A program made the position numbers and the translations under genes. 64,000 nt of DNA from Candidatus Altiarchaeia archaeon (lineage in GTDB: Archaea > Altiarchaeota > Altiarchaeia > IMC4 > QMZM01), in assembly GCA_049299895.1 (NCBI GenBank), contig JBAQYF010000006.1, positions 29 to 64,028 on the forward strand, read 5' to 3'. Numbering within the stretch: the stretch's first letter is position 1; every line of letters begins with the position of its first letter. This document shows, in pieces, positions 1,544 to 15,124 of this stretch. The notes below the pieces were generated by a model, which saw only the letters and a program-made list of their open reading frames with translations, did not search any database and had not been told where the DNA came from.

Positions 1544-1735
1544 ATGCCCCTCGCGGGATTCGGAACATACCGGCTGTCAAACGACCAGGCGGAATTCTGC
1601 GTAAACGAGGCAATCAAAGCAGGATTCAGGCATATCGACTCAGCAGAGGCATACGATAATGAAGAAGACACTGGCAAAGGCATAAAAACACGACATATTT
1701 TGCGAAGGAAGTTAGGGGGACGATTGAGGGGGTAA
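1544..1735 (+). pseudogene. Aldo/keto reductase, 5' fragment only
   Basis: The first ~48 codons (GFGTYRL..EAIKAGFRHIDSAEAYDNEE) match the AKR N-terminus, including the Asp/Tyr of the catalytic tetrad. Similarity then ends and the frame stops after 63 codons, whereas AKRs are ~280 aa. Confidence 0.7.
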
Positions 1736-1821
1736 AATATGAAGGAACAGGATCAATATAAGTGAGGCAGAATACGGCAGATATGAAAACATTGTGCCCA
1801 AGACTGCTTATCCGCAAGGGA

Positions 1822-2274
1822 TTACCTTCCTGCAAATTCCCTTAAATAGTCATCCGGCGTCTTTATCCCAACCTCTTTTACATCGTCGTATTCCGAATCG
1901 TAGGACAATAATATGCTTCCATACAAAAAGGAGGTTGCTAGGATCACGCTGTCCACATATGAAAGGGTTTTCTGTTTCCGGGAGTACTGCGCCTTGAAGT
2001 ATCCCGCAAGAATGGCAGTCTCAGGCGTTGTGTTCGCAACATAAAAGTATTGGCGGATGAATAAAAGGATCGTAGGTATCAGATCCTCTTTTTTGCTGCG
2101 TATGCATACTGTGACGAGCTCCGAGAGAGTGCAGACACTGACTACAGCTTTCAGTTCCTTGGAAACGATCATTCCAAGCAGTAAGCCTGCAATGTCTTTC
2201 CCATCTTCGGCAAAGAAATATCTTAAGAAAACGCAGGTATCAACAAGAACCAGTTCTTCGCTTTTCCCGTCCAT
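1822..2274 (-). CDS. vapC: PIN-domain toxin (VapC-like)
   Basis: ORF 1822..2301. LVLVDTCVFL is the first acidic PIN motif, with later SELV and SYVDSVILATS / SYDSEYD acidic positions. It overlaps an antitoxin-sized ORF upstream on the same strand. The start (2274 vs 2301) is uncertain. Confidence 0.7.
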   Translation of the reverse strand: MDGKSEELVLVDTCVFLRYFFAEDGKDIAGLLLGMIVSKELKAVVSVCTLSELVTVCIRSKKEDLIPTILLFIRQYFYVANTTPETAILAGYFKAQYSRKQKTLSYVDSVILATSFLYGSILLSYDSEYDDVKEVGIKTPDDYLREFAGR

Positions 2275-2452
2275 AGTCTTCCTCGCGCAGTTCCCGAACA
2301 ACGGATACGGCCTTCTTTTCAGACTTGAGAACGCCCTCTAACTCCTGCAACTCCACCTTCGGCCTGGAGAGGACTCGAATCTCGATGTTGCCAACAGTCA
2401 GCTGGTTCGCCCAAGGCTGCTTCAAGTCAACCGACCTCTCCGTCTTTTTCAT
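2240..2452 (-). CDS. Small antitoxin-like partner of the PIN toxin
   Basis: 70-aa ORF directly upstream of and overlapping the PIN gene. Size and position are typical of VapB. I could not assign a fold by eye. Confidence 0.5.
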   Translation of the reverse strand: MKKTERSVDLKQPWANQLTVGNIEIRVLSRPKVELQELEGVLKSEKKAVSVVRELREEDYGREKRRTGSC

Positions 2453-2709
2453 AGTTCATATTTTGTTTTATGAGCATATAAGACCCTGGCGAGGGCTTGG
2501 GAAACATCCTTCTGAAGCACGATCTACCCCCGGTTAACATAAGACTTGAAGACCGGCAGGAGTATTACTCGTCACTCCGAGCATACGAGAACGAAGGAAA
2601 TCTAAGGCCATCCATAGAACTGATACTCAGAAGACTCAGAGCGACCAAAAAGAGGTAGCCGGGTTGGATGACTACAAATAAAGAGGACGTAGTCATGAGA
2701 AGGGGGCCT

Positions 2710-2755
2710 TCACGCAGCCATCTTTCCACCCCCACACCTCATCACCGATATAACT
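2710..2755. repeat. DR1: degenerate copy of the ABC-2 permease 3'-end repeat
   Basis: TCACgCaGCCATCTTtCCaCCCCcACACCtCatCaCC compared with TCACTCCGCCATCTTCCCCAGCGACACCGTCGCCC at 14363, in the same orientation. It overlaps the stop codon of the RelE-like gene. This is the weakest copy. Confidence 0.4.
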
Positions 2756-3002
2756 TGTCGTGATGCTCGTAGTCTTCTATCATCACAGTCTTCGTGTTCT
2801 CATCGACCGAGTACGTCAGGACGAAGCTTCCGACGTGCACGCGTTTCCAGTTTTGCAGGGGTTTTCTGAGGTTCTTGTAGTGCTGCGGGTTTATCAGTAT
2901 CTCGTCAAGCTTCTTGTAAACCGCTTCCATCTGCGCCTTGTCTTTCTTTGAAAGCTTCGCAAATACGCGGTCAACCGAGGGCTTGACTGCCAGGTTATAC
3001 AT
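2742..3002 (-). CDS. relE: RelE/ParE-family toxin
   Basis: 86 aa. ...NPQHYKNLRKPLQNWKRVHVGSFVLTYSVDENTKTVMIEDYEHHDKLY has RelE/ParE-like size and C-terminal pattern. It sits 1 nt after an antitoxin-sized ORF. Confidence 0.7.
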   Translation of the reverse strand: MYNLAVKPSVDRVFAKLSKKDKAQMEAVYKKLDEILINPQHYKNLRKPLQNWKRVHVGSFVLTYSVDENTKTVMIEDYEHHDKLYR

Positions 3003-3003
3003 C

Positions 3004-3243
3004 CTATTTTCCGTAGCGCTTGCGCATCTCGGCGACTGACCCCACCTTGATCGCCTTTTCTTTCATGATGCCTTCGGCCTTCTTTATGTATTCCGGTCTA
3101 AGCTCGGGTTCTAAAAGCTCCTTTTCGTACAACTCGGCCATAAGATCGATCGCCTCGGACTTGTCTTTAAGGCCGTATTTCGCCTTAAGGATGTTCAATA
3201 GCCTGTTAGTCTTCTCGGAAACGTTGATCAGCGCCTGGACCAT
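3004..3243 (-). CDS. Antitoxin of the RelE-like toxin (archaeal DUF2683-like, from memory)
   Basis: 79 aa. MVQALINVSEKTNRLLNILKAKYGLKDKSEAIDLM... resembles small archaeal antitoxins. It lies directly upstream of the toxin on the same strand. Confidence 0.6.
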   Translation of the reverse strand: MVQALINVSEKTNRLLNILKAKYGLKDKSEAIDLMAELYEKELLEPELRPEYIKKAEGIMKEKAIKVGSVAEMRKRYGK

Positions 3244-3305
3244 GTATACACCTCATATATATGATATTAATAGGGAATTAGAGGAAATAAATCAGGATGT
3301 AGCAT

Positions 3306-3707
3306 TCAGCTGAACAGCCTGTTGAATTCTTCCGGCTTGACGATTTTTGTTCCTCGAAATTCCTTGATCTTCAACAGATGATTATCCTGGCTCACTATGT
3401 AGTCGGCCTCCGCAGCTACTGCCGCCTCAAGAAACATGTTGTCGTCGGGATCGTCTGAAACCGCATCGATCTTTTCGACAGGCTCGACCATTATGCAATT
3501 AGAGATCACAAGGTCGATCCATGCGCTGATAAGGTCATCCGGCAACCTGATCTTAAAATCTTTTAATACCGTCTCTATCTCTGATATGGTTTCCAGGGAA
3601 GCGACCAGCGCGTATTTCCCGTCCCTCCACAGTTCCAAGGACTCCCTGGAAGCGCCGGACCAGAATATGCCGGATATGAAAACGTTCGTATCCAGAACGG
3701 CCTTCAT
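3306..3707 (-). CDS. vapC: PIN-domain toxin
   Basis: MKAVLDTNVFISG at the N-terminus, then ...SEIE..., DDPDDNMFLEAAVAAEADYIVSQDNHLL, so four acidic PIN positions are present. There is a 4-nt overlap (3704..3707) with the upstream AbrB-type gene. Confidence 0.85.
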   Translation of the reverse strand: MKAVLDTNVFISGIFWSGASRESLELWRDGKYALVASLETISEIETVLKDFKIRLPDDLISAWIDLVISNCIMVEPVEKIDAVSDDPDDNMFLEAAVAAEADYIVSQDNHLLKIKEFRGTKIVKPEEFNRLFS

Positions 3708-3961
3708 TTTCTGGCTCTTTTAATGGCGTCCTTTACGTCCTTAGGCTTGATCTCCCTTTCGGCAACGTATTCCGCCGTCTTCTCCCGAAGGACATTGAAA
3801 TCCGAAAGAGACGGCATCGAGATCCTCTTCAGGACCACCGTATCGCCCTCGCCCATGACAGCAAACTTCGCACCCTCCTTCAGGCCGAGACGCGTTCTCA
3901 CGTCCAACGGTATCACGACCTGCCCCTTCGAGGACATGCTCGTAACTACGATTTTTTCCAT
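3704..3961 (-). CDS. vapB: AbrB/SpoVT-family antitoxin
   Basis: SSKGQVVIPLDVRTRLGLKEGAKFAVMGEGDTVVLK is the swapped-hairpin AbrB/MazE motif. It appears translationally coupled to the PIN gene. Confidence 0.85.
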   Translation of the reverse strand: MEKIVVTSMSSKGQVVIPLDVRTRLGLKEGAKFAVMGEGDTVVLKRISMPSLSDFNVLREKTAEYVAEREIKPKDVKDAIKRARK

Positions 3962-4024
3962 GGTAAGAATGTCTTACTTTAGAATAATTTGGGATTGAGG
4001 GGATAAAAGAGGGGAGATTAGAAC

Positions 4025-4070
4025 TCACCCAACCGTCTCCCCAGATTCTTCGTCAACCGGAACTTGTGAT
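4025..4070. repeat. DR2: copy of the ABC-2 permease 3'-end repeat
   Basis: TCACcCaaCCgTCTcCCCAGaTTCTTCGTCaACC.. in the same orientation as the other copies. It abuts the stop of the PIN gene at 4072. Confidence 0.55.
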
Positions 4071-4071
4071 T

Positions 4072-4468
4072 CTAATCAACAGCCGAGATCATATCCTTAG
4101 TCTTCAAGACTTTTATCCTTGCCTGTTTCTCGAAATGTCGGTCATTGCTCCAGATAACAGACCCCTCAAAAGCTAACGCAGCGGCAATATAAGGTACGTC
4201 CTTCAAGTCGATCACTCCGATGACCTTATAAGCCTCGTCCCGGTAAGGCAATAGAACATCCGAAGAAATCACAGAGACATAATTGAGCAGCTGAATAATC
4301 AATCCGTCGAATTCTTCATTGGTGAGGCCGAATTTCTTCAAGAGCTCAACGCGATTCCCTTCGATCTCTTCAAGGATAATTTCAGGAAAAAGGAAAACGT
4401 CGTCTGATGAGATCAGAATCCTGCGAGTCCTTCAGGACGAAGACGTTAGCATCCAGGACGAGCTTCAT
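4072..4468 (-). pseudogene. vapC: PIN-domain toxin interrupted by a 1-nt frame change
   Basis: ATG at 4468 gives MKLVLDANVFVLKDSQ... and stops after 28 codons. The rest (..ILISSDDVFLFPEIILEEIEGN..KKFGLTNEEF...SNDRHFEKQ) continues in another frame to 4072. The ATG overlaps the TGA of the upstream antitoxin (ATGA). Confidence 0.7.
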
Positions 4469-4695
4469 TTTTTCAGCTTCATGAATTTCTTGGAAGCCGA
4501 TGCAGAGATCTTATCAGAGAACTCGTCAGCCTCCCGCAGGGTAAGTCTGCTTTTGGAGGATATCTCTTCCATGTACTCGAGATCCGAGACCTTGTCGGCT
4601 AAAGCCTTGCGCACTACCTCGCTCCAGCGGATCTCGGAGTGCTTTTTCATCTTCTTGTGGAGGTCCTCGGGAATGGATAAGGTGATGTTTACCAT
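4465..4695 (-). CDS. vapB: Ribbon-helix-helix/CopG-like antitoxin
   Basis: 76 aa. MVNITLSIPEDLHKKMKK... is an N-terminal beta-strand plus helices typical of RHH antitoxins. It is coupled to the PIN gene downstream. Confidence 0.65.
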   Translation of the reverse strand: MVNITLSIPEDLHKKMKKHSEIRWSEVVRKALADKVSDLEYMEEISSKSRLTLREADEFSDKISASASKKFMKLKK

Positions 4696-5038
4696 TTTGT
4701 ATCATTGATATAGTCGTCAAGCGGGTGAGGCTTATAGACTCAGCCCGCTATTTCGTGAACCTTTCTTAAAGGTTCTGTGAATATATGTGATTACACATAT
4801 AAGAGTATATGGTTCATCTACATGCTCGTCATATAATCACTTCGCCCCTACAGGACATACGAAAAAATCCCCGCATTCCATTGTTTCCCGCTCAGAGCAT
4901 TTAGGTAAGTCTGCTGCTTATAAAAAAAAAAAAGAGATTTAATAGGTTCGCTAAATAACCGTTTACCTAAAAGTATCGATTTTTGTTAATTACAGAACTC
5001 AAAAGTATAGAAAATCTAGGAATATGAGAATTTGGCTT

Positions 5039-5088
5039 TTCACTCCACCATCTTCCCCAAGCTCTTCGTCGACCACCAGAACACCGCC
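5039..5088. repeat. DR3: copy of the ABC-2 permease 3'-end repeat
   Basis: TCACTCCaCCATCTTCCCCAaGCTCTTCGTCGACCA. It matches 18 of the first 19 nt at 14363. It lies 20 nt beyond the stop of the retropepsin-like gene. Confidence 0.7.
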
Positions 5089-5107
5089 GCAAACAGTAAT
5101 CACGTAC

Positions 5108-5527
5108 CTACTTATTCTTTTCTATGTATATGTCGCCTGATTTTTCACAGAAGGTGATGTTGAAGTTTTCAAAGAATCCCTGCCTTCCGATCAACACGCC
5201 CACCTTTTTTGCCGAGAGCATTGGAATGTGGGCGATAACTTCTATTTCATGTTTTTCTCCTTCGCTCTCGACGGCTAAGGTTACCGGGCACATTGCGCAT
5301 GTTAGTTCCTTGTCGATCCCTGTGATCTTCTGGGATTTGAGTCTTTGATATTTTATGCCCAGGATGGATGCGACGTCTTCGGGTATAAAGGTGTAGTCAG
5401 CCCCGGAGTCTAACAGAGCAGTAATCGGCAATTCCTTGGACTTGTACTTTAGTTTTATGGGTATTATTGGAGTAAGTCTTGCTCCCATCCGATACCTAAA
5501 ATGCATCGTCATTGTAGATCGATTCAA
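5108..5527 (-). CDS. Retropepsin-like (clan AA) aspartic protease
   Basis: ALLDSGADYTFIP contains the D-S/T-G-A active-site motif. The size (~130 aa) fits a single-lobe retropepsin-like protein. The start is ambiguous because several Met lie near the N-terminus. Confidence 0.7.
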   Translation of the reverse strand: MNRSTMTMHFRYRMGARLTPIIPIKLKYKSKELPITALLDSGADYTFIPEDVASILGIKYQRLKSQKITGIDKELTCAMCPVTLAVESEGEKHEIEVIAHIPMLSAKKVGVLIGRQGFFENFNITFCEKSGDIYIEKNK

Positions 5528-5546
5528 AAAAAGAATCTTCTTTCAG

Positions 5547-5741
5547 CTATACGATCAGACATTTATCTCCGTAAACTTTGTCCATTAACAACTCTTTTGC
5601 AGGATGCTTCTTTTTTGCTTCATTGTACACGCTTTTGGCGTTTAAACCTGATGCGACTATTTTCCCGTCAACTACGGCGATCCATTTATCCGTGTATTCC
5701 TTCAAGGGAGCCGACATAACAAATGAGTAGTTTTTGTCCAT
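5547..5741 (-). CDS. Small protein, DUF5678-like (from memory)
   Basis: 64 aa. ..YTDKWIAVVDGKIVASGLNAKSVYNEAKKKHP.. It lies 19 nt upstream of the protease gene on the same strand. Confidence 0.5.
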   Translation of the reverse strand: MDKNYSFVMSAPLKEYTDKWIAVVDGKIVASGLNAKSVYNEAKKKHPAKELLMDKVYGDKCLIV

Positions 5742-5900
5742 TTTGCTTTCACCCGATCAATAATAATTTTTTACGAAGCTTTATTAATACTTATTTTCGT
5801 AGGCAGAAGCTAGAGTAAGAGAAATAGAGCCAGCAACCACCCCAAATGTATATCTAATTGGGGAAAACAAACTTAAAAGACGTAAAAAGGCTGGATTACC

Positions 5901-5946
5901 TCACTCCGCCATCTTCCCCGGGCTCTTAGTCGACCAGAAACTTGTG
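5901..5946. repeat. DR4: copy of the ABC-2 permease 3'-end repeat
   Basis: TCACTCCGCCATCTTCCCCgGGCTCTTaGTCGACCA. The first 19 nt are identical to 14363..14381. It abuts the decayed PIN remnant. Confidence 0.75.
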
Positions 5947-5949
5947 GTT

Positions 5950-6215
5950 CTAGTCAACAGCAGTGATCATATCTTTGGTCTACAAGATTTTCACCCTTGT
6001 CTATTTCTCGAAGTGCCGGTCATTGGTCCAGATAGCGGGAGCCTCATATGCGAGGGCCGTTACAAGTATCAGAACAACATCGGGGTCTATTTCGCCCAAC
6101 AACTCAAATGCGTGTTCCTTCTGGGGAAGCGTTTTTTCGTCCGGGACCACGATCACGTATTTCAGCAGAGTATCGAGGCCATGGATATCCCAAATGTATC
6201 CATTCTTATAGTAGA
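5950..6215 (-). pseudogene. PIN toxin remnant (C-terminal half, in-frame stops, no start)
   Basis: The minus-strand reading ..LLGEIDPDVVLILVTALAYEAPAIWTNDRHFEI*TRVKIL*TKDMITAVD* is homologous to 4072..4341 at both nucleotide and protein level. It has two internal stops and lacks the N-terminal half. Confidence 0.65.
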
Positions 6216-6249
6216 AATACTATAATATTATAGTAATAATTATATAATC

Positions 6250-7311
6250 ATGGATCAAACCACCTACCGGATATTGAAGGGGTTAGGCAGCAGCCCAGGC
6301 AAAGATTATTCCATCAACAGCCTTACAAGGGAGCTTGGAGCAGGCAGCCATAAGGCATATTACAAGAACGTCTATGACAAGATAAAGGAATTGAATAAGG
6401 AAGGGAACATAATCCTGGAAAAAACAGGCAACTCCAGCAGGATATCGATCAATTACGATGACTACGGCACTATCCTCCTATTATCCCAACTGGAATTGAT
6501 GAAAGAGAGGGAACTATTGGAGGGTGACTTAGAACTGAAAATGCTTTTATCGGATATAAGCACCTCTTTTAGCAGGGATTTCTGCTGCATTAAATATATC
6601 GCCATCAATCATCCGCACAGGAACAGGTCCCTGAACAGGCAGGAATTCCTGTTCGCCCTAAAAGACCGGGCGACAAAAAAGGACACAATAGACATATACC
6701 GGAAAATGCTGGACCTAGAAGCCGCCCACAACATAAAGCTGGATTGCCTGATCCTCAGGGAGAACGAATTACGGGAACTATTCAAAGAACAAGCCCACAA
6801 CCCGCTCAAGGAAATGATACCAGAACAGACGATCCTGAAGTACCAGGAGGAATACTGGCAGGAGATAAAAAAGATGCTCGAAGAAGGAATCAATATCCGC
6901 GGCGCAGAAGAGATCAATCCCGCAAAGATAGACGAAAAAGACTTATCCTACAACCTGGGAAGATTCGGATACAAGGAAACGGGAGGAACGATCGAAAAAG
7001 GAAAAAACTACGCCATTGAAACGATCATAATCTCCTTAATGCTAAACGGAGACGCACGCAGAATGGAGGCAATACCCCTCATCCTAAGCAAGAACCGGGA
7101 AAGAGGACGCAAGCCGATATACAACCTGCTGATATTCCTGGCAAAAAAATACCGAAAAGAAGAAAAGATCCACGCCTACCTGAAACTGCTAAACACAGGG
7201 AAAAACAAGGAAAACAAAGACGCAACAGACATAATGACAGCCCTCGGCATAAAGCCCGCGAAGATAGACGAAAAAACGATAAGGCAGAAGATGAGGTTAT
7301 ACAATGGATAA
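6250..7311 (+). CDS. Hypothetical protein with an N-terminal winged-helix-like region
   Basis: 353-aa ORF. The N-terminus (YRILKGLGSS..YSINSLTRELG...VYDKIKELNKEGNIILEK) looks like a wHTH. The rest is unassigned. The motif PAKIDEK occurs twice. Confidence 0.6.
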   Translation: MDQTTYRILKGLGSSPGKDYSINSLTRELGAGSHKAYYKNVYDKIKELNKEGNIILEKTGNSSRISINYDDYGTILLLSQLELMKERELLEGDLELKMLLSDISTSFSRDFCCIKYIAINHPHRNRSLNRQEFLFALKDRATKKDTIDIYRKMLDLEAAHNIKLDCLILRENELRELFKEQAHNPLKEMIPEQTILKYQEEYWQEIKKMLEEGINIRGAEEINPAKIDEKDLSYNLGRFGYKETGGTIEKGKNYAIETIIISLMLNGDARRMEAIPLILSKNRERGRKPIYNLLIFLAKKYRKEEKIHAYLKLLNTGKNKENKDATDIMTALGIKPAKIDEKTIRQKMRLYNG

Positions 7312-7343
7312 GACAGATCACGCATATACTTCCGAAGGACATT

Positions 7344-8306
7344 TCAGTCTTTTTCTTTCTTCTTCGGTTCCAGGCCGTACACTTCTTTCAATACGACTCC
7401 AAAGGCGTTTGCGAACTCTTTCGGGAATTCGCGGAATCCTTTTTCTATGCTGGAGTTGAGGCTGCCGTATTTGACTTCCAATATGGAAAAATCTGTATCT
7501 ATTATATCATAATTGATGTTGGATGCCGTGTTCTTCAGATCCGTTAAGGCGCTGATCCCCTCGTCCAGCCTTGCCCCAAGCTCATCCGTGTCTCTGGCAA
7601 GGACGAAGTCGTCTCTCTCCTCGACTATGGCGTTTTTTATCTCCTTCCTGTAAACACTTGGGTCAACGGGAGTTATTTTTTTAAGGACGTAAGAAGTTTT
7701 CCCGGAGTCTAATGCTTTCAGACGCCTCAAAATCGCTTTCTTCTTTTCAAGCAGAGGAATCGCCCTGGCCTTCTTCTCGTCGAGGTCCCCGGAAATAAGG
7801 ATGCCGTCGAGCACATCAATCGTTTCGGACAATTGGTTTACCAATCTCTGTCTCACGTTCTCAGACTCTACTTCCTTAGAGATCAAACCATTAATATCCT
7901 TCTGGAAACCTATGATCTCCCCCGGCCTGCCTTTGCATACAGCAAGAACGCTTTCGTCGTAGTTCTGGAGGTTTAGGACAAAGCCGCGCAGCTTATGGGA
8001 TTTTGCAATCGATCTGATCTTAGACCTAAAAACGACCCCTTTAACAATTCCATCGAAGAGGAAAGCCTTGGAAACCAATTCTGCCATTTTCTCATTAAAA
8101 AATAGGATGAAAAAGGTTAAAAATGCGTTTAAGAAGGTATTCCGGGCAAAAAAGGATTGATAAGGGGAGTTATGGTCATACACAGACGGCGTCTGGAGTT
8201 TCTTCAGGACGATCGCCCACTCCGAAGACCGTGAATCTGAGACCGCCCTATAGGCCCAAACTCTTTCGAATGCAAGGGGGATGAGGATCTGGTCCTTCGA
8301 GGACAT
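7344..8306 (-). CDS. Hypothetical protein: acylphosphatase-like domain plus helical C-terminal region (true start may be ATG 8087)
   Basis: From M74: FLFDGIVKGVVFRSKIRSIAKSHKLRGFVLNLQNYDESVLAVCKG approximates the acylphosphatase signatures. The first ~45 codons (MSSKDQILIPLAFER..WAIVLKKLQTPS) and the upstream DNA are homologous to the AbrB antitoxin locus at 3830..4030. The 5' part therefore looks like a fused antitoxin remnant. Confidence 0.5.
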   Translation of the reverse strand: MSSKDQILIPLAFERVWAYRAVSDSRSSEWAIVLKKLQTPSVYDHNSPYQSFFARNTFLNAFLTFFILFFNEKMAELVSKAFLFDGIVKGVVFRSKIRSIAKSHKLRGFVLNLQNYDESVLAVCKGRPGEIIGFQKDINGLISKEVESENVRQRLVNQLSETIDVLDGILISGDLDEKKARAIPLLEKKKAILRRLKALDSGKTSYVLKKITPVDPSVYRKEIKNAIVEERDDFVLARDTDELGARLDEGISALTDLKNTASNINYDIIDTDFSILEVKYGSLNSSIEKGFREFPKEFANAFGVVLKEVYGLEPKKKEKD

Positions 8307-8587
8307 GGTGGTGAGGGGGAGATTTGAGATGGTAAGAACGGCTTACATGAGGATAATAAATGGAGGGAGATAAAAGAGATGAATTGGTTAGCACCTTCTC
8401 TGCACGCTTCTGGGCACGTCATAGCAGCGGCTAGTACAGAATAAGTATTAGTCATTTCGTGGAAACATCATTTTCATCTTCTTTTTGGACGAGGCGATGT
8501 AATTTATTTAAAGGATATTATATCATATTGAAAGTTATTTAGATTAGTGTTATAACTTGTAGATAAAACTATCTTGTAACCCACAAT

Positions 8588-11134
8588 ATGGTTTCAACAG
8601 ATAAACAGTTATGGAATGAACTTGAAGTTGATTATACAAAAATTACTAAGGAGTGGGAAAAGAAATATAAAAAAACCTGTAAAAGAATTCTAAACAAACG
8701 ATTTGATGAAAAGGATATTGATGAAATTGCAGAATCTTTTGGGATAACTATTGTTGGCCCAAATAAACCGGGCAAGGTTGATGAAATTATTAATTTAGAA
8801 TTTGGAAAGACCGTATGGATGTTATATGAATTTCAAAAAACCAAAATTTTAGTTATTGAAGAATTTTGTTCTAGCGCTACGGTACAAACTAGACTACCTG
8901 AATTAGCATTAAAAGAAACAATAATGGGACAAATATCCTTGATGTTTGTAGAACGAAAAGAATTAATCCGGGAAATATATGTGCTTAATAATAGAAGAAA
9001 TTTAAAATCAATTAAATATCACAAATCTGTGATACCAATTACAACGCAGCACATAGACACAATAATACAAAACAAAAACAGGCTAATTAAATTTCTTAAC
9101 AAAAGAGATAAGGAAAATTATAAATGGAAATTTTATTTAAAGACAACCATTAATAACACTGTTTTACTGATGTTTCTAAGACAAATCAATGATAAACTAG
9201 AACGGGAAATAGATCGACCCAAAAGGAAAAAAACAACGTTAAAGTGCTTCATTGAATTTCATCTTGGGGAAAAAGATATCCAGATTTTATGCTCAAGGTA
9301 TGTTGATTGGAAATCTTTAGAAAAAGGTGTCGAGAAAATATTGTTCCAGATTCCGCAAGTTGAAGAATGCTTCAATGACTTTGAAAATACCTTGTACCGG
9401 CAATTTAAGGATAATCTATGCTCAGAAGAGGCTCAATCTGAAATAAAGATAGTTGAGATTACATTCCCTAGAAGTGAACTGAATGGCTTACCTAGATTAC
9501 ATTTGACGGACATAACGAGAAATCAGGGATTAGCCAACTCATTACAAACACTAATGGATGAAGAGAAAATCAAGATTTTTACTCTGAGAGACATTTCATC
9601 ACTAAAAATACGATATGATAATAGAACTAAGTCAATACAAGTCAATTCTATTGGACCTGGTTTGGTAGAACTTGATTTAGACACTAGAGGTTTGGATCAA
9701 GAAGAAATCAACGCACTAAAAGAAAAATTTAAAGAGGTATTTGGTTTCCCATTATGCCATCCTGTAGCTCAACCTCACAATAAGCAGGATTTAGAAAGAC
9801 TGCTATCCAATATTTTCTCAAGACAAGAAGTGTTTAATCCACAGGAATATGAGTTAAAAATTATCTCCAAGCTAATTGAATTAGATTTAATTACCTGTCA
9901 AGAACGCTATTATTGTGTTTGTACTGCAGATCCAATCCATCATAAAGACGAATATTCTAATCCAGATGAAGAAAGATGTTATTCATGTCATGCAAGAATT
10001 GAACCCGTCAAGAAAGTACTTAAACCCCTTTCTTCCGAACCCAAAATTAGCTCGTTTATAAAAAACATTCTATTAAGAGAGGGGATTTCTGCAAGAGAAC
10101 CGATTTACAAACATAAGGGAGAAATCAAGTTGATTTCAACGACATATAAAAATCGTCCCTGTTACTTTTATGTAAACTGCAAACCTTTGCCTACAAAAAT
10201 TATTAGCTTTTTTAAAGCTTCCGGGTTACCCATAATATTCATAAATGTTGGATCTGGAAGACTGAGTAAAAAAGTCCAGGAATATAATATGTTCAAACCT
10301 GTCGACCTTAATTATTTAATTATTTCTACATTTGAGGATAATCTACCACCCAGTTACTTTAGTGAATTAGTAAAAGAGAGAATCGATCTTCTTTATTCTA
10401 ACATAGTTGGAGCTGGAGAAAGTTCTTACAACCGACTTAATGAATATCTATCTGGTGGAGTTGGATATGATAGACAAAAACTTGAAGATGATTCCTTTAA
10501 TTTGTTAAGGATGATTTTTCCAAATTCTCAGAAATGGGGCAAAGAATATTCTAGTAAGCCATTACCAGATGGTGTTGGAGGACTAAGTATAAATGGAACT
10601 CCCAGAGGTTGTTTCACGTGGGATTGTAAATTAGCTGAAGGCAAAGAAACCAATGGTAATTTTATTCCTCATATGTTAAACCGGGGGGAGAAGAGAGCTG
10701 GACGAGAGTATATCAAACGGTTATGTGAAAATAAAGAGATTACTCAGTATCATTCATCAAAAAAATTAGATGCATTTATTATAATTTCGAATTGTATGAA
10801 TACAACAAATTTCAACAATTATGCAAAGCATCTTTCAAAAACAGAGTTTTATTTGCAAAGCAAGAAGAAATGGAAAGGCAAAGTAATTTATATTTCAACA
10901 AAAACCTTATTGCATCTTTACCGGAAATACCAAGCTGAGTTTTCTAGGCCAGAATTGAATCAAGAGACCTTAGATCAAAAAATTTCATCTTTATTCTTAA
11001 AGAAAAATAGATTGCCAAAAAAGATATACTATGACGAGATTACCGAAGAAAAAATCGACGAAATTATTAATGATTATAGAGCATCAATTAATTCACCCCC
11101 TAATATCAATCCGAATACTTTGGTGGAGGATTAA
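8588..11134 (+). CDS. Large orphan nuclease-like protein: unknown N-terminal region, Zn-ribbon, C-terminal PD-(D/E)xK (FokI-cleavage-domain-like) module
   Basis: 848-aa ORF in an AT-rich block. CVC..x22..CYSC is a Cys4 cluster. The C-terminal region ..LEDDSFNLLRMIF..GKEYSSKPLPDGVGGL-x12-FTWDCKL..REYIKRL..AFIIISN has the order E..PD..DxK and spacing similar to the FokI catalytic domain. Confidence 0.6.
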   Translation: MVSTDKQLWNELEVDYTKITKEWEKKYKKTCKRILNKRFDEKDIDEIAESFGITIVGPNKPGKVDEIINLEFGKTVWMLYEFQKTKILVIEEFCSSATVQTRLPELALKETIMGQISLMFVERKELIREIYVLNNRRNLKSIKYHKSVIPITTQHIDTIIQNKNRLIKFLNKRDKENYKWKFYLKTTINNTVLLMFLRQINDKLEREIDRPKRKKTTLKCFIEFHLGEKDIQILCSRYVDWKSLEKGVEKILFQIPQVEECFNDFENTLYRQFKDNLCSEEAQSEIKIVEITFPRSELNGLPRLHLTDITRNQGLANSLQTLMDEEKIKIFTLRDISSLKIRYDNRTKSIQVNSIGPGLVELDLDTRGLDQEEINALKEKFKEVFGFPLCHPVAQPHNKQDLERLLSNIFSRQEVFNPQEYELKIISKLIELDLITCQERYYCVCTADPIHHKDEYSNPDEERCYSCHARIEPVKKVLKPLSSEPKISSFIKNILLREGISAREPIYKHKGEIKLISTTYKNRPCYFYVNCKPLPTKIISFFKASGLPIIFINVGSGRLSKKVQEYNMFKPVDLNYLIISTFEDNLPPSYFSELVKERIDLLYSNIVGAGESSYNRLNEYLSGGVGYDRQKLEDDSFNLLRMIFPNSQKWGKEYSSKPLPDGVGGLSINGTPRGCFTWDCKLAEGKETNGNFIPHMLNRGEKRAGREYIKRLCENKEITQYHSSKKLDAFIIISNCMNTTNFNNYAKHLSKTEFYLQSKKKWKGKVIYISTKTLLHLYRKYQAEFSRPELNQETLDQKISSLFLKKNRLPKKIYYDEITEEKIDEIINDYRASINSPPNINPNTLVED

Positions 11135-11178
11135 AAAAAAAACACATCAACCTTCGCCATAAACCGATTATACTCATT

Positions 11179-11226
11179 TCACTAAGCCATCTTTCAGACT
11201 CTTCAGTCGACTATTAGAACATCAGC
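11179..11226. repeat. DR5: decayed copy of the ABC-2 permease 3'-end repeat
   Basis: TCACTaaGCCATCTTtCagACTCTTCaGTCGACtAttAGAACATCA in the same orientation. It lies in the intergenic gap between the two AT-rich modules. Confidence 0.55.
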
Positions 11227-11330
11227 ATTGCATATATCATTATAACCACATATCTCTTAAATGATATAAGTAGTAGCCCTGAATTTAGTATAACCGCCTT
11301 ATAACCGTAGGAATTCTAAGATTCCATGAA

Positions 11331-12317
11331 TTGAAAAAGATAATTTTCCTTGATGTCGGGTGGATGAAATCGTATAGAGGACTTGGATCAGATGACACTA
11401 TTGAGGGGGGAGGGGCATTTGTTCAGGAACATGGATATGGTCATGAAATATTTAACTTTTTGCCTCTTGATGGTTATTACTATGGTTTTGTTGAAACAAA
11501 GCAAAGGAACAGTATTAGAAATAAGATAAATATAACGAAATTGGGCGCTTCTAAGACGGACGAATATATTGATGGGGTTCTAGTTATTTGGGTCGCACCA
11601 GACCCTGAGAGTGGCACGAAGATAATCGGCTGGTTTGATAATGCTAGAGTATATAGAAAGGAGCAAGAGTCAGATGACAATAGAAGACTGTTCAAAAATG
11701 AGATATTTGGATTCTTCGTGAGAGCTAAGGTGGAGAATTGTCGACTTCTTTCTCTAGATGAAAGGATTTTTAGTATACCTAGAAAACAAAAAGGAGGTTT
11801 CGGTCAATCTATGCTGTGGTATGCAGACCAACCTGAGATGGAGGAATTTGTCCAAAAAGTCGTAGACTATGTTCATACAGGTAAGGTTGAATCCCCAAAA
11901 CAAGTGTCTCCTAGATTTCACAGACAACTTGATCCTTACAAACGAATAAAAATTGAGAAGGAAGCTATCAAAGTCATTACAGAGTATTATGAGGGACTTG
12001 GGTACCAAGTAGATTCAGTTGAACAGGATAATGCGGGTTGGGATTTAGAAGCAATTAGTGGAAGTAAGGTCCTTAAACTTGAAGTAAAAGGCCTGTCGCA
12101 AGACTGCATTGTAATTGAACTAACCCCAAATGAATATGAAAAGATGAACCAGAACAGAGATAGTTATCGGATATGCGTGGTTATAAAAGCGTTATCTGAT
12201 AGCCCTGACAGAGTTATATTCTCATATTCACCTGACTCAAACTGCTGGGAAGATGATGAAGGCCGGAAATTGAAGATAAATGAGATCCATAAGGTTAGTG
12301 CACGAGGGTATATCTAA
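11331..12317 (+). CDS. DUF3883-type (PD-(D/E)xK-like) C-terminal domain protein with unknown N-terminal domain
   Basis: 328 aa, TTG start in the ORF track. The C-terminus DNAGWDLEAISGSKVLKLEVKGLSQDCIVIELTPNEYEKM..SYRICVV matches the DUF3883 pattern (G-D..EVKG...LT.NE). The N-terminal ~190 aa are unassigned. Confidence 0.6.
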   Translation: MKKIIFLDVGWMKSYRGLGSDDTIEGGGAFVQEHGYGHEIFNFLPLDGYYYGFVETKQRNSIRNKINITKLGASKTDEYIDGVLVIWVAPDPESGTKIIGWFDNARVYRKEQESDDNRRLFKNEIFGFFVRAKVENCRLLSLDERIFSIPRKQKGGFGQSMLWYADQPEMEEFVQKVVDYVHTGKVESPKQVSPRFHRQLDPYKRIKIEKEAIKVITEYYEGLGYQVDSVEQDNAGWDLEAISGSKVLKLEVKGLSQDCIVIELTPNEYEKMNQNRDSYRICVVIKALSDSPDRVIFSYSPDSNCWEDDEGRKLKINEIHKVSARGYI

Positions 12318-12466
12318 ATTTTAGATCTTCACACATATTTCCTGTTAGGAGAAAAGTAAGTTACGTTTTAACAAGGGAGATGGATTAAGATAGCTACCTT
12401 TAAGTAAGCAGTCTTCCTTTTAGGGGTTAAAGAATAGAAGTAATTGGTTGAGGTCAGACCTTTGAA

Positions 12467-13510
12467 TCATTCAATTGAAGTGGTATCTGAGACTACGGAG
12501 TCATTAAAAACTGTTTTTAGTGTTTTTATTTGATTTTCATTCAAAATGTTTCGTTCACAGTAATGGTTTTTATGAACTCGACCTAATAAGACAGGTCTGC
12601 AATCAGGTATTGTAAAATCCCGAGTATAAGCTATAACTGCACTGATATTTTCTGTGCTTGGTTCTGTAAAAGCTATACTGTCCAATTTACGTGTACCATA
12701 TTTCCTAATGCATTCACCAGTTTGGTTGTCTAAAAAAAAATTTAGTACAGGAGTTCCGTGTAAAGCCTTATCGGGGGCATATTCCTTGTCAAAATGAGAA
12801 TATCCAGTGTTAATGACAACCACTACTGGATTTTTATCATTTTTCTCTCTTTTTTTAATAATTTCAGCAATATTTTTAGCATATTTCTCAATCAACTTCT
12901 GCCCAAGAACGTCTTTTTCGGGAGGTTTTAACTTATAAGAGCTAAACCCTTCAGAGTGTACTTTTTCCTCTTCAACATCCATCCTCCAGTTAGGAGTATA
13001 AACCTCAAGATACACCAAACCACCAGCAATAAAAGCGCTTAAGTCAGGTGTCTTCCCAGTTATATCTGGCTCCAAAATGACGCAGTAACCTGATTTTTTT
13101 AGAACGGCTGCAACTTCAATCTCTGAAAGTGTGTCAAAAAATTGGTTTGGACTAGTTAATTTAGATCTCAAACGTTTAGATCCCTCAGTACCTGACTTAA
13201 TTCCAAGAATACGTAAACAGTTCTCGAGGTGATTAAGAAGCAGGTATTCAGTATGGCAATCAACTTCATCTATCATCAGTAGAAACTTCTTCATTTCTAG
13301 GTCAATCGAATCCGCTCCTTCTTCTCTAGGAAGCTTACATTTATCTAAATGCAAATTTAATAGTTTAGTGGAATCTGGAGGAAGACCCTTCAAAAAAGAT
13401 TTAATTAGGTGTTTGTCTCGTTTATCATCTAAAATCCAGTCCTCATTCACTAAATTTGTCAAGTAAGGCAACTCAGCAAGTCTGCTTTTTATTGAATCCA
13501 TATTTTCCAC
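12467..13510 (-). CDS. Hypothetical protein, possible nuclease fold
   Basis: 347-aa ORF, AT-rich. SEIEVAAVLKKSGYCVILEPDITGKTPDLSAFIAGGLVYLEVYT has E..PD..E-x-(Y) spacing reminiscent of PD-(D/E)xK, but the Lys is missing. This is a weak call. Confidence 0.45.
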   Translation of the reverse strand: MENMDSIKSRLAELPYLTNLVNEDWILDDKRDKHLIKSFLKGLPPDSTKLLNLHLDKCKLPREEGADSIDLEMKKFLLMIDEVDCHTEYLLLNHLENCLRILGIKSGTEGSKRLRSKLTSPNQFFDTLSEIEVAAVLKKSGYCVILEPDITGKTPDLSAFIAGGLVYLEVYTPNWRMDVEEEKVHSEGFSSYKLKPPEKDVLGQKLIEKYAKNIAEIIKKREKNDKNPVVVVINTGYSHFDKEYAPDKALHGTPVLNFFLDNQTGECIRKYGTRKLDSIAFTEPSTENISAVIAYTRDFTIPDCRPVLLGRVHKNHYCERNILNENQIKTLKTVFNDSVVSDTTSIE

Positions 13511-13613
13511 GCTAAATAGTCGTTAGTTAAATGTATCATTTAAAGTTATTTTCCATTAAAAGGAGCTATAAACGCATTTAGATTATATTACTCTAGGGTT
13601 CATTGATAATAAG

Positions 13614-14327
13614 ATGATATTTCCAGATCCAGTCTTATGGAAGGAACTTCAGGATAGGGTAAAAACTGTTTTCTGCGACATTGGTTTTCAAGCAGAAACC
13701 GAAATGGAGATTCAGACAGTCAGAGGAACGGTTAATATTGATGTGATTGGGTTTGATAATAAACATAAACCCGAGATTACGTATTTGTGTGAATGTAAAA
13801 ATTGGAATTCTAACGTCCCAAAAGAGAAAGTCCATGCATTTAGATCTGTGGTTGGCGATTACGGAGCTAATTTTGGCATAATAATATCAAAGAGGGGATT
13901 TCAAAAAGGTGCTAGGGAAGCTGCAAAAAAAACCAATATATCTTTACTTAACTGGACCGAGTTCCAACAAATGTTCTTTGACAGATGGTTCGATGCTAAG
14001 GTTGAGAGCTTAAGGCATTATGCAATGCCTCTCGTTGCTTACAGTGAACCGCTAAATTGCAGTCGAGATGGGGAATTTGAAAAAATCAAACCTAGCGAGC
14101 GTCAGAGAAAGGAATTTTACCGATTGATTATTGAATATTCTGGCTTCTCAATGTATTTGTCCCAACTTTATTTTGGATCTATTAAAGACACTATTTCATT
14201 CCCTCTGGAAGACAAAGAGTTAGAGATAAAAGTAGAAACCGCATCTCATTTTTTCGATGAACTACAGAAAAAATGCATAGCAGGACTAATTAAGTTTGAC
14301 ACGCTTTTTGGAAAAGAGATAAGATAA
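13614..14327 (+). CDS. Mrr-cat-type restriction endonuclease domain protein
   Basis: ..VNIDVIGFDNKHKPEITYLCECKNW...VPKEKVHAFRSVVGDYGANFGIIISKRGFQKGAREAAKKTNISLL is the Mrr_cat (D..ExK) pattern. It is followed by a ~120-aa unassigned C-terminal extension. Confidence 0.7.
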   Translation: MIFPDPVLWKELQDRVKTVFCDIGFQAETEMEIQTVRGTVNIDVIGFDNKHKPEITYLCECKNWNSNVPKEKVHAFRSVVGDYGANFGIIISKRGFQKGAREAAKKTNISLLNWTEFQQMFFDRWFDAKVESLRHYAMPLVAYSEPLNCSRDGEFEKIKPSERQRKEFYRLIIEYSGFSMYLSQLYFGSIKDTISFPLEDKELEIKVETASHFFDELQKKCIAGLIKFDTLFGKEIR

Positions 14328-14362
14328 TGCGAATAATTTTCGATAGAATAATCCGGCTTTCT

Positions 14363-14408
14363 TCACTCCGCCATCTTCCCCAGCGACACCGTCGCCCACT
14401 TGAACATC
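14363..14408. repeat. DR6: reference copy, the actual 3' end of the ABC-2 permease CDS
   Basis: TCACTCCGCCATCTTCCCCAGCGACACCGTCGCCCACTTGAACATC is the reverse complement of ...KWATVSLGKMAE-stop. Confidence 0.8.
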
Positions 14409-15124
14409 AATATCGCAAGCACCGTCATCAGCACGTATCCTTCTATGATCACATCATTCCCGTAGTTCCCCGTGAATAGCATCCGTGAAGCATCTACCGC
14501 GTACGCAAGCGGGTTCAGCTTCGCCAGGGTCTGCAGCCATGCGGGTGCGAGGATCATCGGCAGCATTATCCCCGATAGCAGCATTACGGGCATTGCGATC
14601 ATGTTTAGCGCCGGCGCGAGGCTGTCTTCTATTTTTAGGATTAGTCCGAGGGAGTATGATAGTGATGCCATTGTTATTGCTATTAGCATGTACATGGGGA
14701 GGGCCAAAAGAAAGCCCAGGAGGTTTAGTTTTAGTCCCATAGGTATTGCTATAAGGGTTATGATCAGGCATTGTGCCAGATACACTGTCACGTCTTTTAG
14801 GATCATTCCCAGTAGTATTGCGCTTCTGTTTACCGGCGTTACGAGGAATCGTTCTATTACTCCTGAGCGGATATCGTCTATTACGTTGAATCCTACGAAT
14901 ATGGGTCCGAAGATGCCGAGCATGACAAGCAGCCCTGGAATGAATACCTGTACCGTTTCTCCTTCCGGGATCCCGGGGACTGCTCCGAGGTTTTGTAGCA
15001 GGGGCATGAACAGGAAGAGGTAGAGCATGGGCATGAACAGGTTCACAAAGACGTATACGAGGTTTCTTAGCGTGTGGGTCATGTTTCGCCGGTACATGAG
15101 CATGACATCGTTTATTGCTTTCAT
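14363..15124 (-). CDS. ABC-2 type transporter permease
   Basis: 253 aa with about six hydrophobic spans. It has a 4-nt overlap with the upstream ABC ATPase gene, a DrrAB-like arrangement. Confidence 0.85.
   Translation of the reverse strand: MKAINDVMLMYRRNMTHTLRNLVYVFVNLFMPMLYLFLFMPLLQNLGAVPGIPEGETVQVFIPGLLVMLGIFGPIFVGFNVIDDIRSGVIERFLVTPVNRSAILLGMILKDVTVYLAQCLIITLIAIPMGLKLNLLGFLLALPMYMLIAITMASLSYSLGLILKIEDSLAPALNMIAMPVMLLSGIMLPMILAPAWLQTLAKLNPLAYAVDASRMLFTGNYGNDVIIEGYVLMTVLAILMFKWATVSLGKMAE

Follow-up and report, generated by a model that had tools for sequence, protein, structure and literature searches.

An archaeal genome carries, downstream of the gene for an ABC-2 type transporter permease, a 12-kb array of small cassettes with toxin-antitoxin (TA) and defence genes, each cassette terminating in a copy of the last 40-80 bases of the permease gene. 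The question raised by this locus is how such an array has been built at the end of a protein-coding gene. The array is part of a 64-kb stretch of DNA (64,000 nt, referred to here as the window) from an archaeal lineage whose metagenome-assembled genomes bear the label Ca. Altiarchaeales or Euryarchaeota; the related loci used for comparison (numbered with the prefix L) come from metagenome assemblies throughout. An original prediction, made from the window alone, proposed that an island between 1700 and 14408 had grown by serial site-specific integration into the permease 3' end, each event regenerating the gene end and pushing the older copy outward, or else as an integron-like cassette array.

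Table 1 Permease gene, copies of its 3' end, cassettes and border features in the window
Feature	Position	Strand	Evidence
ABC transporter ATPase, upstream partner of the permease	15121..16182	-	Pfam ABC_tran, DrrA1-3_C
ABC-2 type transporter permease gene, 253 aa	14363..15124	-	Pfam ABC2_membrane, E 2.8e-29
Cassette A	11257..14362	.	Pfam, weak PADLOC hits, GC profile
Cassette A: Mrr_cat restriction-endonuclease-like	13614-14327	+	Pfam / weak PADLOC
Cassette A: 347-aa protein without family	12467-13510	-	
Cassette A: NOV_C/DUF3883-like	11331-12317	+	Pfam / weak PADLOC
Copy 1 of the permease 3' end	11179..11256	-	nhmmer E 1.4e-4
Composite region B	5939..11178	.	
Region B: orphan 848-aa ORF	8588-11134	+	
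Region B: AbrB-like N-terminal remnant	8169-8306	-	
Region B: acylphosphatase-like gene	7344-8087	-	
Region B: 353-aa wHTH protein	6250-7311	+	
Region B: PIN_2 C-terminal remnant	5953-6177	-	
Copy 2, 38 nt	5901..5938	-	profile E 1e-5
Cassette C	5109..5900	-	Pfam
Cassette C: DUF5678 protein	5547-5741	-	Pfam
Cassette C: retropepsin-like aspartyl protease	5108-5527	-	Pfam
Copy 3, 69 nt, ..FAAVFWWSTKSLGKMVE*	5040..5108	-	profile E 3e-12
Cassette D, including 5' spacer	4066..5039	-	
Cassette D: RHH_12 antitoxin	4465-4695	-	
Cassette D: PIN_2 toxin, frameshifted	4072-4468	-	
Copy 4, decayed, frameshifted	4025..4065	-	nhmmer E 0.06; aligned with copy 2 and L016
Cassette E, two TA pairs	2742..4024	-	Pfam
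Cassette E, pair 1: MazE/AbrB-like + PIN_3	3704-3961 + 3306-3707	-	Pfam
Cassette E, pair 2: DUF2683 + ParE	3004-3243 + 2742-3002	-	Pfam
Copy 5, outermost, decayed, 5'-deleted	2710..2741	-	positional homology with L002 second copy and L016 terminal copy
Further PIN toxin (1822-2301) + upstream small ORF (2240-2452)	1822..2452	-	Pfam PIN, E 1.7e-12
Truncated aldo/keto reductase gene, N-terminal 63 aa only	1544..1735	+	Pfam Aldo_ket_red, profile positions 4-57 of 291

Five extra copies of the permease 3' end are present downstream of the true end and on the same strand (Table 1). The sequence TCACTCCGCCATCTTCCCC occurs on the plus strand at the true end (14363) and at 5901 without mismatch and at 5040 with one mismatch, three matches where shuffled sequences predict 0.02, so the repeats claimed in the original prediction are real and withstand the shuffle test that had been named beforehand as able to refute them. 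Read on the minus strand, the true end is ..FKWATVSLGKMAE*, the 5901 copy ..FWSTKSPGKMAE* and the 5040 copy ..FWWSTKSLGKMVE*. A profile made solely from eight true permease ends of relatives (nhmmer) and run over the 64 kb matched copies 1 to 4, each of them minus-strand and downstream of the permease gene, and gave no comparable match elsewhere in the window; the copy at 2710 fell below its detection. Decay of the remaining copies, also predicted, is evident in copy 1, which is A+T-shifted and has stop codons inside. Copy 4 is weak alone and forms part of a repeat of ~150 nt (PIN_2 gene end plus copy) common to 5901 and the metagenome contig L016, copy 2 meeting the PIN_2 gene end at the same junction as copy 4 and L016. 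Since its position matches the second copy of L002 and the flank beyond it (2635-2698, 64 nt) is 85% identical to the flank past the terminal copy of L016, the 2710 element is a decayed, partly deleted copy.

The copies are fragments of true permease coding sequence, with up to 74 in-frame codons in relatives. In public collections the motif is confined to these loci, the remaining hits being unrelated coding sequences, and duplicated ends are seen for no other gene of the 64-kb window. Copy 3 is 100% identical over 37 nt to the true end of L007 and carries the allele of the sister clade, FWWSTKS, instead of the FKWATVS of the window lineage; the copies are therefore imported and not local duplicates.

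The permease itself is full-length (253 aa) in all arrays and the cassettes start directly 3' of its stop codon, the target gene remaining intact because incoming DNA restores the gene end. Synonymous-codon identity of its last 15 codons is 0.84 against 0.57 overall, which ranks first of 240 sliding windows. The last ~45 nt (14363-14407) are the putative primary attachment site. The neighbours of the permease arrays are an ABC ATPase, a Bact_hydrolase-family gene and genes for secreted or membrane proteins, the ATPase being a core gene whose synteny is kept in all relatives.

The units are 0.65-3.1 kb long and, like integron cassettes, mostly hold one gene or operon each with a putative recombination site at the end; gene orientation is biased towards the permease strand without being uniform. 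The cargo of most units is a TA pair or a defence-type gene, type II TA modules being recognized as adjacent small genes that match PIN, PIN_2, PIN_3, ParE_toxin, MazE_antitoxin, DUF2683 and RHH_12. Gene content of the intervals is as originally described, apart from a supposed split TA cassette in region B, which dissolves into two unrelated remnants, the PIN_2 C-terminus and the AbrB-like N-terminus. Region B has lost its internal copies by deletion, and its acylphosphatase-like gene matches L001 9738-10527 at 76.6% identity, a stretch that in L001 forms a cassette between permease-end copies. Cassette A has a low GC content (32-36%). Cassette D shares 87% nucleotide identity with L016 and 84% with L007 and L014, as against ~75% for core genes, and its spacer is homologous to DNA past the true gene end in L008. 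The ParE pair of cassette E is 90% identical at the nucleotide level to that of L002, where it is the first cassette and lies between two copies. The structure models of the 353-, 347- and 848-aa proteins, with a pLDDT of ~35, gave no identification. The truncated aldo/keto reductase gene marks a rearranged distal border, and it is uncertain whether the PIN pair past the last copy belongs to the array; of the limits first given for the island, the left one (1700) is approximate, the last copy lying at 2710 with both these features beyond it.

Repeat-bounded variation among relatives, which the original prediction had called for, was found in L041, L002 and L016. L041 matches the window at 96.5% identity between 15584 and 14362, in the ATPase and permease genes, and is unrelated to it from one base past the stop codon, cassette A being absent and the divergence falling at 14362. 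The L041 gene end and its downstream DNA are in turn collinear with the second copy of L002 and the DNA beyond (80.7% over 1.1 kb), so that the 654-nt ParE cassette is an insertion/deletion between two copies; likewise, the terminal copy and flank of L016 match copy 5 and its flank, which makes cassette E a copy-bounded insertion/deletion. Occupied and empty sites with breakpoints at the repeats are thus seen between the window and L041, between L002 and L041 (ParE), and between the window and both L016 and L008. The same cassettes recur at varied positions and in different genomes: PIN_2 with its 38-nt copy is found twice in the window and again in L016, ParE is shared by the window with L002 and other contigs, and L001 and L042 both possess the acylphosphatase-like gene together with a long fragment. 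The length of the copy is kept with the cassette across genomes and array positions (38 nt with PIN_2, 170-225 nt with the acylphosphatase-like gene), and TA cassettes exceed core genes in identity between genomes (ParE 90% versus 72%, PIN_2 87% versus ~75%). Because relatives hold different cassettes at the same spot, the permease gene end is a reused insertion site.

Extra downstream copies are present in all four relatives with enough DNA past the permease; three of these come from the genome collection (L001, L042 and L002) and one, L018, is a metagenome contig. Each of the four has two or three copies, and the repeats in L001 and L042 are exact over 44 and 45 nt; the median cited for att sites of crenarchaeal elements is 45 bp (PMC6563490). 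None was found at 77 loci with more distant permease homologues, 70 of which have at least 3 kb of downstream sequence, and the pattern is limited to this lineage. Permease fragments lie upstream of the operon in L007 and L044, the former unexplained by simple downstream insertion. Taken together, the genome comparisons support a serial, repeat-bounded insertion downstream of the permease gene in which the gene end would be regenerated and older copies displaced outward, as the original prediction had it.

The best reading of these data, to which we give about an even chance, is that cassettes lacking a recombinase recombine site-specifically within the last ~19-45 nt of the permease gene, the enzyme being supplied in trans. 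The last ~45 nt would serve as the chromosomal attachment site in this archaeal lineage, and the mobile units would be small DNAs with their own permease-end copy at the 3' side (38 to ~225 nt, of a length typical of each cassette). Recombination between this copy and the gene end would place the cassette directly past the stop codon, leaving the permease reading frame intact and the copy of the cassette at its far side; repeated insertion would yield an array with older cassettes further out and their copies decaying, and later deletions would fuse or truncate cassettes. The window and L041 both retain the lineage-specific FKWATVS end despite unlike first cassettes, which places the putative exchange 3' of FKWATVS, within the ~19 nt of shared sequence (GGGGAAGATGGCGGAGTGA). 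The copies sit on the strand and side that site-specific insertion predicts. The enzyme, probably a tyrosine-type recombinase, may be encoded at another place in the genome or by a transient element, since no cassette encodes one, and with a trans-supplied enzyme the cassettes would behave like cis-mobilizable elements or integron cassettes.

Searches with Pfam, NCBIfam, PADLOC and PHROGs detected no integrase, transposase or recombinase domain in ~30 cassette genes of six arrays (~35 kb), with the sole exception of an IS5-like transposase in L042, and no recombinase domain in the ORFs tested across the remainder of the window, in keeping with the original statement that no recombinase is visible there. 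The collections searched yielded no plasmid or virus contig bearing the ~45-nt site, for which that prediction had proposed a search, and no circular contig. Inspection of the copies revealed no dyad symmetry, which counts against the site-specific reading, and eight folds (four copies, both strands) gave no hairpin (z from -0.5 to +1.6 versus shuffles). Several known types of element were considered and rejected. The integron-like alternative holds as far as the small cassettes each end in a site, but a canonical integron is excluded, as attC hairpins are absent and there is no intI beside the platform site. An SSV-type provirus does not fit, for the ORFs that run across the copies are short and antisense, no int(N)/int(C) fragments are present, and a 344-aa ORF running into a copy in L001 encodes a membrane protein without similarity to integrases. 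The casposon was discarded, there being no Cas1 match and the repeats being 38-225-nt direct copies of coding sequence. As to a Xer/dif module, a dif-like site consists of two 11-nt inverted repeats flanking a 6-nt spacer (PMC8371274); by inspection at most three of 11 positions are complementary in any 11-6-11 register of the aligned copies, which hold just a GTCGAC palindrome and a direct GAAGA repeat.

The main rival to the site-specific reading is homologous recombination independent of any dedicated recombinase, which we consider possible but rather doubtful. A donor permease 3' fragment with a neighbouring gene would be circularised, or excised between two direct copies, and a single RadA-mediated crossover would put the circle into the end of the resident permease gene, with the fragment length in each cassette recording where the donor piece started. 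This would account for arrays in which no recombinase is found, for copies that are allele mosaics from different lineages and, with a circle carrying the whole operon, for the upstream fragment of L007; the widely varying fragments (38 to ~225 nt), being true in-frame coding homologues with good homology up to 225 nt, are explained equally well by either process. The resident end of the window lineage and the cassette copies share just ~19 identical nt, however, and the preceding 27 nt differ at nine positions (counted from the aligned copies), which makes them a poor substrate for homologous recombination. Moreover, synonymous conservation is raised in the last 15 codons only and not over the 225-nt homologous stretch, and a generic process would be unlikely to act at one site in one lineage, leaving all other genes of the window and the 77 distant loci without duplicated ends.

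The units could also be remnants of integrase-bearing integrative plasmids or proviruses, deleted down to a TA pair or defence gene and now themselves immobile, i.e. CIMEs in the strict sense; we regard this as improbable. Such accretion is the usual source of gene-end tandem arrays in bacteria (PMC5704250, PMC3146451, bioRxiv 10.1101/2020.12.28.424599), TA modules are the parts likeliest to outlast deletion, region B proves that deletions happen, and the low-GC cassettes A and B look recently imported. Yet no integrase gene or recognisable fragment is left in ~17 units from six genomes, whereas the Dehalococcoides ssrA islands have kept an integration module in 16 islands (PMC3146451), and independent decay would not yield small cassettes that recur with identical boundaries and fragment length. 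The ParE cassette, moreover, is far more alike between genomes (90%) than their core genes are (72%). That nothing has moved, the copies being leftovers of local permease duplication or rearrangement or a chance-similar dispersed intergenic repeat, is very improbable. The strong degradation of the copies at 2710 and 4025 and the upstream fragments of L007 and L044 might speak for it, but it is already contradicted by the comparisons of shared cassettes and copy-bounded insertions/deletions. Copy 3 is the allele of another clade, cassettes common to several genomes occupy differing positions at identities above those of core genes, and the motif, a piece of permease coding sequence, occurs nowhere else in the window.

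With site-specific exchange as the preferred reading, the locus resembles several known systems. When phage 21 or e14 integrates into icd of E. coli, the element brings an alternative 3' end for the protein gene that is as long as ~165 nt, icd stays functional and a displaced gene-end fragment is left behind; there a lone prophage integrates by means of its own integrase, while here a cassette array is reiterated. In tandem accretion of ICEs, IMEs and CIMEs the target is likewise a gene 3' end regenerated by the incoming DNA, and units are separated by att copies, the ICESt1-related elements of Streptococcus thermophilus being the example cited (PMC5704250), just as the permease arrays show direct repeats of the target 3' end downstream in the orientation of the gene. 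Units devoid of an integrase retain their att sites there and are open to mobilisation in cis or in trans. Those arrays contain integrase-bearing members and units of many kb, whereas the six arrays described here have units of 0.65-3 kb without a recombinase, no integrase domain being detectable in any unit or beside the site. The Dehalococcoides ssrA islands (PMC3146451) and Prochlorococcus tycheposons (bioRxiv 10.1101/2020.12.28.424599) also arise by successive integrations beside one conserved gene, with serial direct repeats of its 3' end, newer units pushing older ones outward and some units without integration genes, but their targets are tmRNA or tRNA genes, many units carry integrase modules (DsiB, tyrosine recombinases) and fragmented integrases persist among the remnants. 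Integron arrays, including archaeal ones (PMC9668308), share small one-gene or one-operon cassettes, often TA pairs, a terminal recombination site of cassette-typical length, a fixed platform and a recombinase outside the cassettes; they differ in having intI beside the platform and attC hairpins defined by structure, in place of sequence-conserved coding-end copies and mixed gene orientation.

Also known are the archaeal integrations into protein-gene ends covered by a survey of Thaumarchaeota (PMC6563490) and a review (PMC8371274), in which the element supplies the stop codon and arrays formed by site re-use are mentioned. The elements there, recognised by their integrases, are proviruses of several genes, casposons or cryptic elements, and the att sites are mostly shorter than 26 bp, as opposed to 38-225-nt gene-end copies on integrase-less mini-cassettes. 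The sense of novelty in the original prediction was therefore only partly right: an ABC-2 permease gene is not among the targets named in the portions consulted of PMC6563490 and PMC8371274, but archaeal protein-gene-end integration and arrays by site re-use, the general principle, had been described (PMC6563490). The permease array is a variant of tandem accretion at a gene end, a process already known, and its host is an uncultured archaeal lineage.

The 3′ end of the ABC-2 permease gene, read on the minus strand as ..FKWATVSLGKMAE-stop, recurs downstream of the gene in five further copies, numbered outward from it. A window scan located the 19-mer TCACTCCGCCATCTTCCCC at 14363 (the true end) and 5901 without mismatch; at 5040 one position differs. 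These 3 plus-strand occurrences compare with 0.02 expected from shuffles; the minus-strand readings at 5901 and 5040 are ..FWSTKSPGKMAE-stop and ..LLFAAVFWWSTKSLGKMVE-stop. To guard against circularity, only true gene ends, those of eight related permeases, went into a nucleotide profile. It matched copies 1 to 4, all downstream of the permease gene, with no further noteworthy match in the rest of the 64 kb. Copy 4 is part of a repeat of ~150 nt (PIN_2 gene end plus copy) common to 5901 and the related contig L016. The decayed copy 5 is below profile detection, but its position corresponds to the second copy of the related contig L002, and over the next 64 nt outward the sequence is 85% identical to the flank past the last copy of L016. 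The profile matches, the ~150-nt repeat and these correspondences together indicate that all six copies, the number claimed in the original prediction, are real. Duplicated ends of other genes were not found in the window. A Logan contig of 5306 nt (L121, from SRR28062479), assembled independently from the same strain, agrees with window 1104-6409 at 100% identity and confirms copies 2 to 5 and the gene units between them, cassettes C to E.

Features of the permease locus, its downstream units and two distant genes (window coordinates)
Feature	Position	Strand	Description
ATPase gene	15121-16182	-	Precedes permease gene
ABC-2 type permease gene	14363-15124	-	Pfam ABC2_membrane, E 2.8e-29
Cassette A	11257-14362		GC 32-36% vs ~50% background; Mrr-type nuclease, unknown 347-aa protein, NOV_C/DUF3883-like protein
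Copy 1	11179-11256	-	Profile E 1.4e-4
Region B (composite)	5939-11178		Orphan 848-aa ORF, AbrB-like remnant, acylphosphatase-like gene, 353-aa wHTH protein, PIN_2 C-terminal remnant
848-aa ORF	8588-11134	+	Region B
AbrB-like antitoxin remnant	8169-8306	-	Fused in frame with acylphosphatase-like ORF
320-aa fusion ORF	7344-8306		Product of that fusion
353-aa protein	6250-7311	+	Region B
Copy 2	5901-5938	-	Profile E 1e-5
Cassette C			DUF5678 protein, retropepsin-like protease
Copy 3	5040-5108	-	Profile E 3e-12
Cassette D			RHH_12 antitoxin (intact), PIN_2 toxin
PIN_2 toxin gene	4072-4468	-	Frameshift near N-terminus
Copy 4	4025-4065	-	Profile E 0.06
Cassette E			AbrB-PIN_3, DUF2683-ParE
Copy 5	2710		Decayed
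Giant ORF, 3617 aa	40912-51765	-	Internal repeats
Neighbour of giant ORF	52543-53970		Cys-rich repeats

Two further features lie past the outermost copy: one more PIN pair and the truncated gene of an aldo-keto reductase. Region B had been read as containing a split toxin-antitoxin (TA) cassette, a description that was not borne out: its two remnants are unrelated, the PIN_2 fragment resembling the toxin of the related locus L008 and the AbrB fragment belonging to a different TA type. The 848-aa ORF, with no relatives among 5.8 billion protein clusters and no match in Pfam, NCBIfam, PADLOC or PHROGs, is a true orphan within the low-GC block of a defence-type island. About 184 clusters of proteins of ~350 aa are related to the 353-aa protein and make up with it an uncharacterised family, which has an HVO_A0114-like winged helix at the N-terminus and a conserved ..KMRLYN motif at the C-terminus. 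A profile of the family, made from 50 of the about 184 relatives, matched solely the wHTH domain (HVO_A0114) in Pfam and nothing in PDB, and the two-arginine pattern of tyrosine recombinases is absent from its conserved residues. For the 353-aa and 347-aa proteins, AlphaFold models from single sequences reached a pLDDT of only 34-35, too low for use.

The sources of close permease homologues (73-98% identity) are MAGs and metagenome contigs carrying the label Ca. Altiarchaeales or Euryarchaeota. The upstream order of FtsX/MacB genes, Bact_hydrolase-family gene, ATPase and permease is kept among them, and the DNA after the permease is different in nearly all. It encodes DUF2683-ParE in L002 and two other contigs, RHH_12-PIN_2 in L008-10, L014 and L007, an acylphosphatase-like gene followed by a 344-aa protein and a trypsin-like protease in L001/L027, a GNAT acetyltransferase in L042 and L030, and a PDC-S01 ATPase, a 487-aa membrane protein and a TIR-like protein in L018. 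Extra permease-end copies are present in L001, L042 and L018 (two each), L002 (one) and L016 (the terminal copy). Across the arrays copy length is characteristic of each cassette: copies that follow PIN_2 measure 38 nt (twice in the window and in L016), the one behind ParE in L002 measures 72 nt, the L018 copy behind the PDC-S01 ATPase at least 130 nt, and those behind the acylphosphatase-like gene in L001 and L042 170-225 nt, with an in-frame stretch of 74 codons among them. A metagenome DNA scan for the site gave 16 matches, only those in L014, L016 and L018 being relevant; the remaining 13 were discarded as unrelated bacterial coding sequence on the opposite strand. More distant relatives of the cassette antitoxins (70% at the nucleotide level) lie in other defence islands and carry no permease-end copy, so that they give no indication of a vehicle.

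A tRNA-Leu(TAG) gene lies just past the variable region in three relatives (L001 13288-13370, 130 nt beyond the last permease-end copy; L007 11966-12048; L030 4297-4379) and is missing from the matching side of the window, where the distal flank is rearranged. L007 also carries a permease 3′ fragment of ~190-215 nt (1943-2157) upstream of the ABC operon, in the order fragment, 80-aa gene, NosD and NucS_C-TPR genes, ATPase and permease, a layout that is not produced by simple downstream insertion.

Comparison of these loci bore out the expectation that cassettes bounded by the repeat vary among relatives. The near-identical strain L041 matches the window at 96.5% identity from the ATPase to the permease stop codon and is unrelated from one base further on. 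Its gene end and downstream genes are collinear with the second copy of L002 and the genes following it (80.7% over 1.1 kb), so that L002 differs by a 654-nt ParE cassette between two copies. The last copy of L016 and its flank are the counterpart of window copy 5 and its flank, which makes cassette E a copy-bounded insertion or deletion, and DNA past the true gene end in L008 is homologous to that past window copy 3, so that window 5109-14362 is all extra relative to L008. Identity between genomes is 90% for the ParE cassette against 72% for core genes and 87% for the PIN_2 cassette against ~75%; the acylphosphatase-like gene has diverged as much as the core genes. Window copy 3 is the FWWSTKS allele of a sister clade, with 37 nt identical to the true end of L007, and the gene end of the window lineage (its members P0001-P0003 and L041) is FKWATVS or a close variant; the copies thus arrived with the cassettes and not by local duplication. 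As a control, 80 genome loci with permease homologues were compared, and downstream copies of the own gene end were detected in just three, all of the close clade. The other 77, 70 of which have at least 3 kb downstream, gave one 21-nt match on the opposite strand and one 27-nt match upstream of the gene. The latter (L044 342-368, a Bathyarchaeia MAG) copies its own permease end (..LRSLKKMAS-stop) 7.8 kb upstream of the gene, adjoins the C-terminus of an rve/DDE transposase-like ORF and is the only sign that the phenomenon might extend beyond the close clade.

The place of the exchange can be narrowed. The window and L041 share the same lineage-specific gene end and have different first cassettes, and the other allele type appears in the window's first outer copy (11179); this puts the crossover 3′ of the allele-specific segment, inside the shared GGGGAAGATGGCGGAGTGA. 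Exact repeats of 44 and 45 nt in L001 and L042 begin with (A)TGTTCTGG. Synonymous-codon identity between nine clade members peaks in the last 15 codons, which rank first of all 240 sliding windows (0.84; overall value 0.57). This pattern points to frequent exchange, or to a constraint acting at the DNA level, limited to about 45 nt. In the gene ends at window 14363-14407 and their homologues, invariant blocks ATGTTCTGGTGGTCGACGAAG and GGGAAGATGG..G.GTGA surround a variable 6-nt segment of Ser-Leu codons (for example AGCTTG, TCATTA, TCGCTG and AGTTTG), which changes across genomes and adjacent copies.

Serial insertion at the permease end, with the end regenerated each time, was the origin of the island first proposed, and the tests of mobility support it well. 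Concerning the mechanism, we prefer, at about even odds, site-specific recombination in which the enzyme works in trans on cassettes lacking a recombinase, because the process is confined to a single site and a single lineage, the conserved segment is sharply delimited and short, the inferred crossover falls within ~19 nt with poor flanking homology, and identical small cassettes reappear across genomes. No recombinase domain was found in the cassette genes of six arrays, in operon neighbours or in the other tested window ORFs, the sole exception being an IS5-like transposase in L042. The idea that a 344-aa ORF overlapping a copy in L001 might be a split integrase was discarded. No contig of the virus collection carried a copy of the site, three matches without permease homology being due to chance. 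Homologous recombination of circularised donor fragments would account for both the missing recombinase and the varied fragment lengths, but it leaves the site and lineage specificity unaccounted for and seems to us rather unlikely. That the cassettes are fossil remnants of ordinary integrase-bearing elements agrees with the textbook route, yet it is at odds with the total absence of integrase debris and with the conserved cassette boundaries, and we consider it improbable.

The locus may represent an archaeal integron-like gene-capture system without attC hairpins, a proposal we make tentatively. Its platform would be the final ~45 nt of a housekeeping ABC-2 permease gene, each mobile cassette (TA pairs, defence genes) would bring its own copy of the gene end as a recombination site, and a recombinase encoded elsewhere would shuttle cassettes in and out, leaving strains of one lineage with different defence repertoires at one locus.

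To our knowledge, how toxin-antitoxin pairs and small defence genes pass from genome to genome has largely not been explained, least of all for uncultured archaea. At this locus they accumulate as discrete units at one precisely defined site; every unit bears a copy of the site, and the units change between near-identical strains. Should the cassettes be mobilised in trans, an integron-like store of cassettes would have been reached by a second route, with the end of a coding gene in place of attC hairpins, and a demonstration of this would raise the interest of the locus; the short conserved 45-nt site would make the question directly testable. Should they be fossils of ordinary integrative elements, the locus would still be of use as the marker of a hot spot for integration and of a defence island in an archaeal lineage about which little is known.

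For archaea, integration into the 3′-distal part of protein genes is already described, as are arrays that arise when one site is used again (PMC6563490, PMC8371274). In bacteria, accretion of integrase-less CIMEs at gene ends has been described (PMC5704250), and ssrA and tRNA islands are built in the same way (PMC3146451; bioRxiv 10.1101/2020.12.28.424599). The window array differs from these known systems in its target gene, in its very small cassette-like units and in wholly lacking recombinase genes. As for the integron-like array envisaged in the original prediction, both defining tests of an integron, intI and attC, were negative: attC-like architecture was rejected since the copies form no hairpin, and a dif-like one since inspection of the copies revealed no 11-6-11 dyad symmetry. 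The array is thus not a canonical integron, but it behaves like an integron cassette array.
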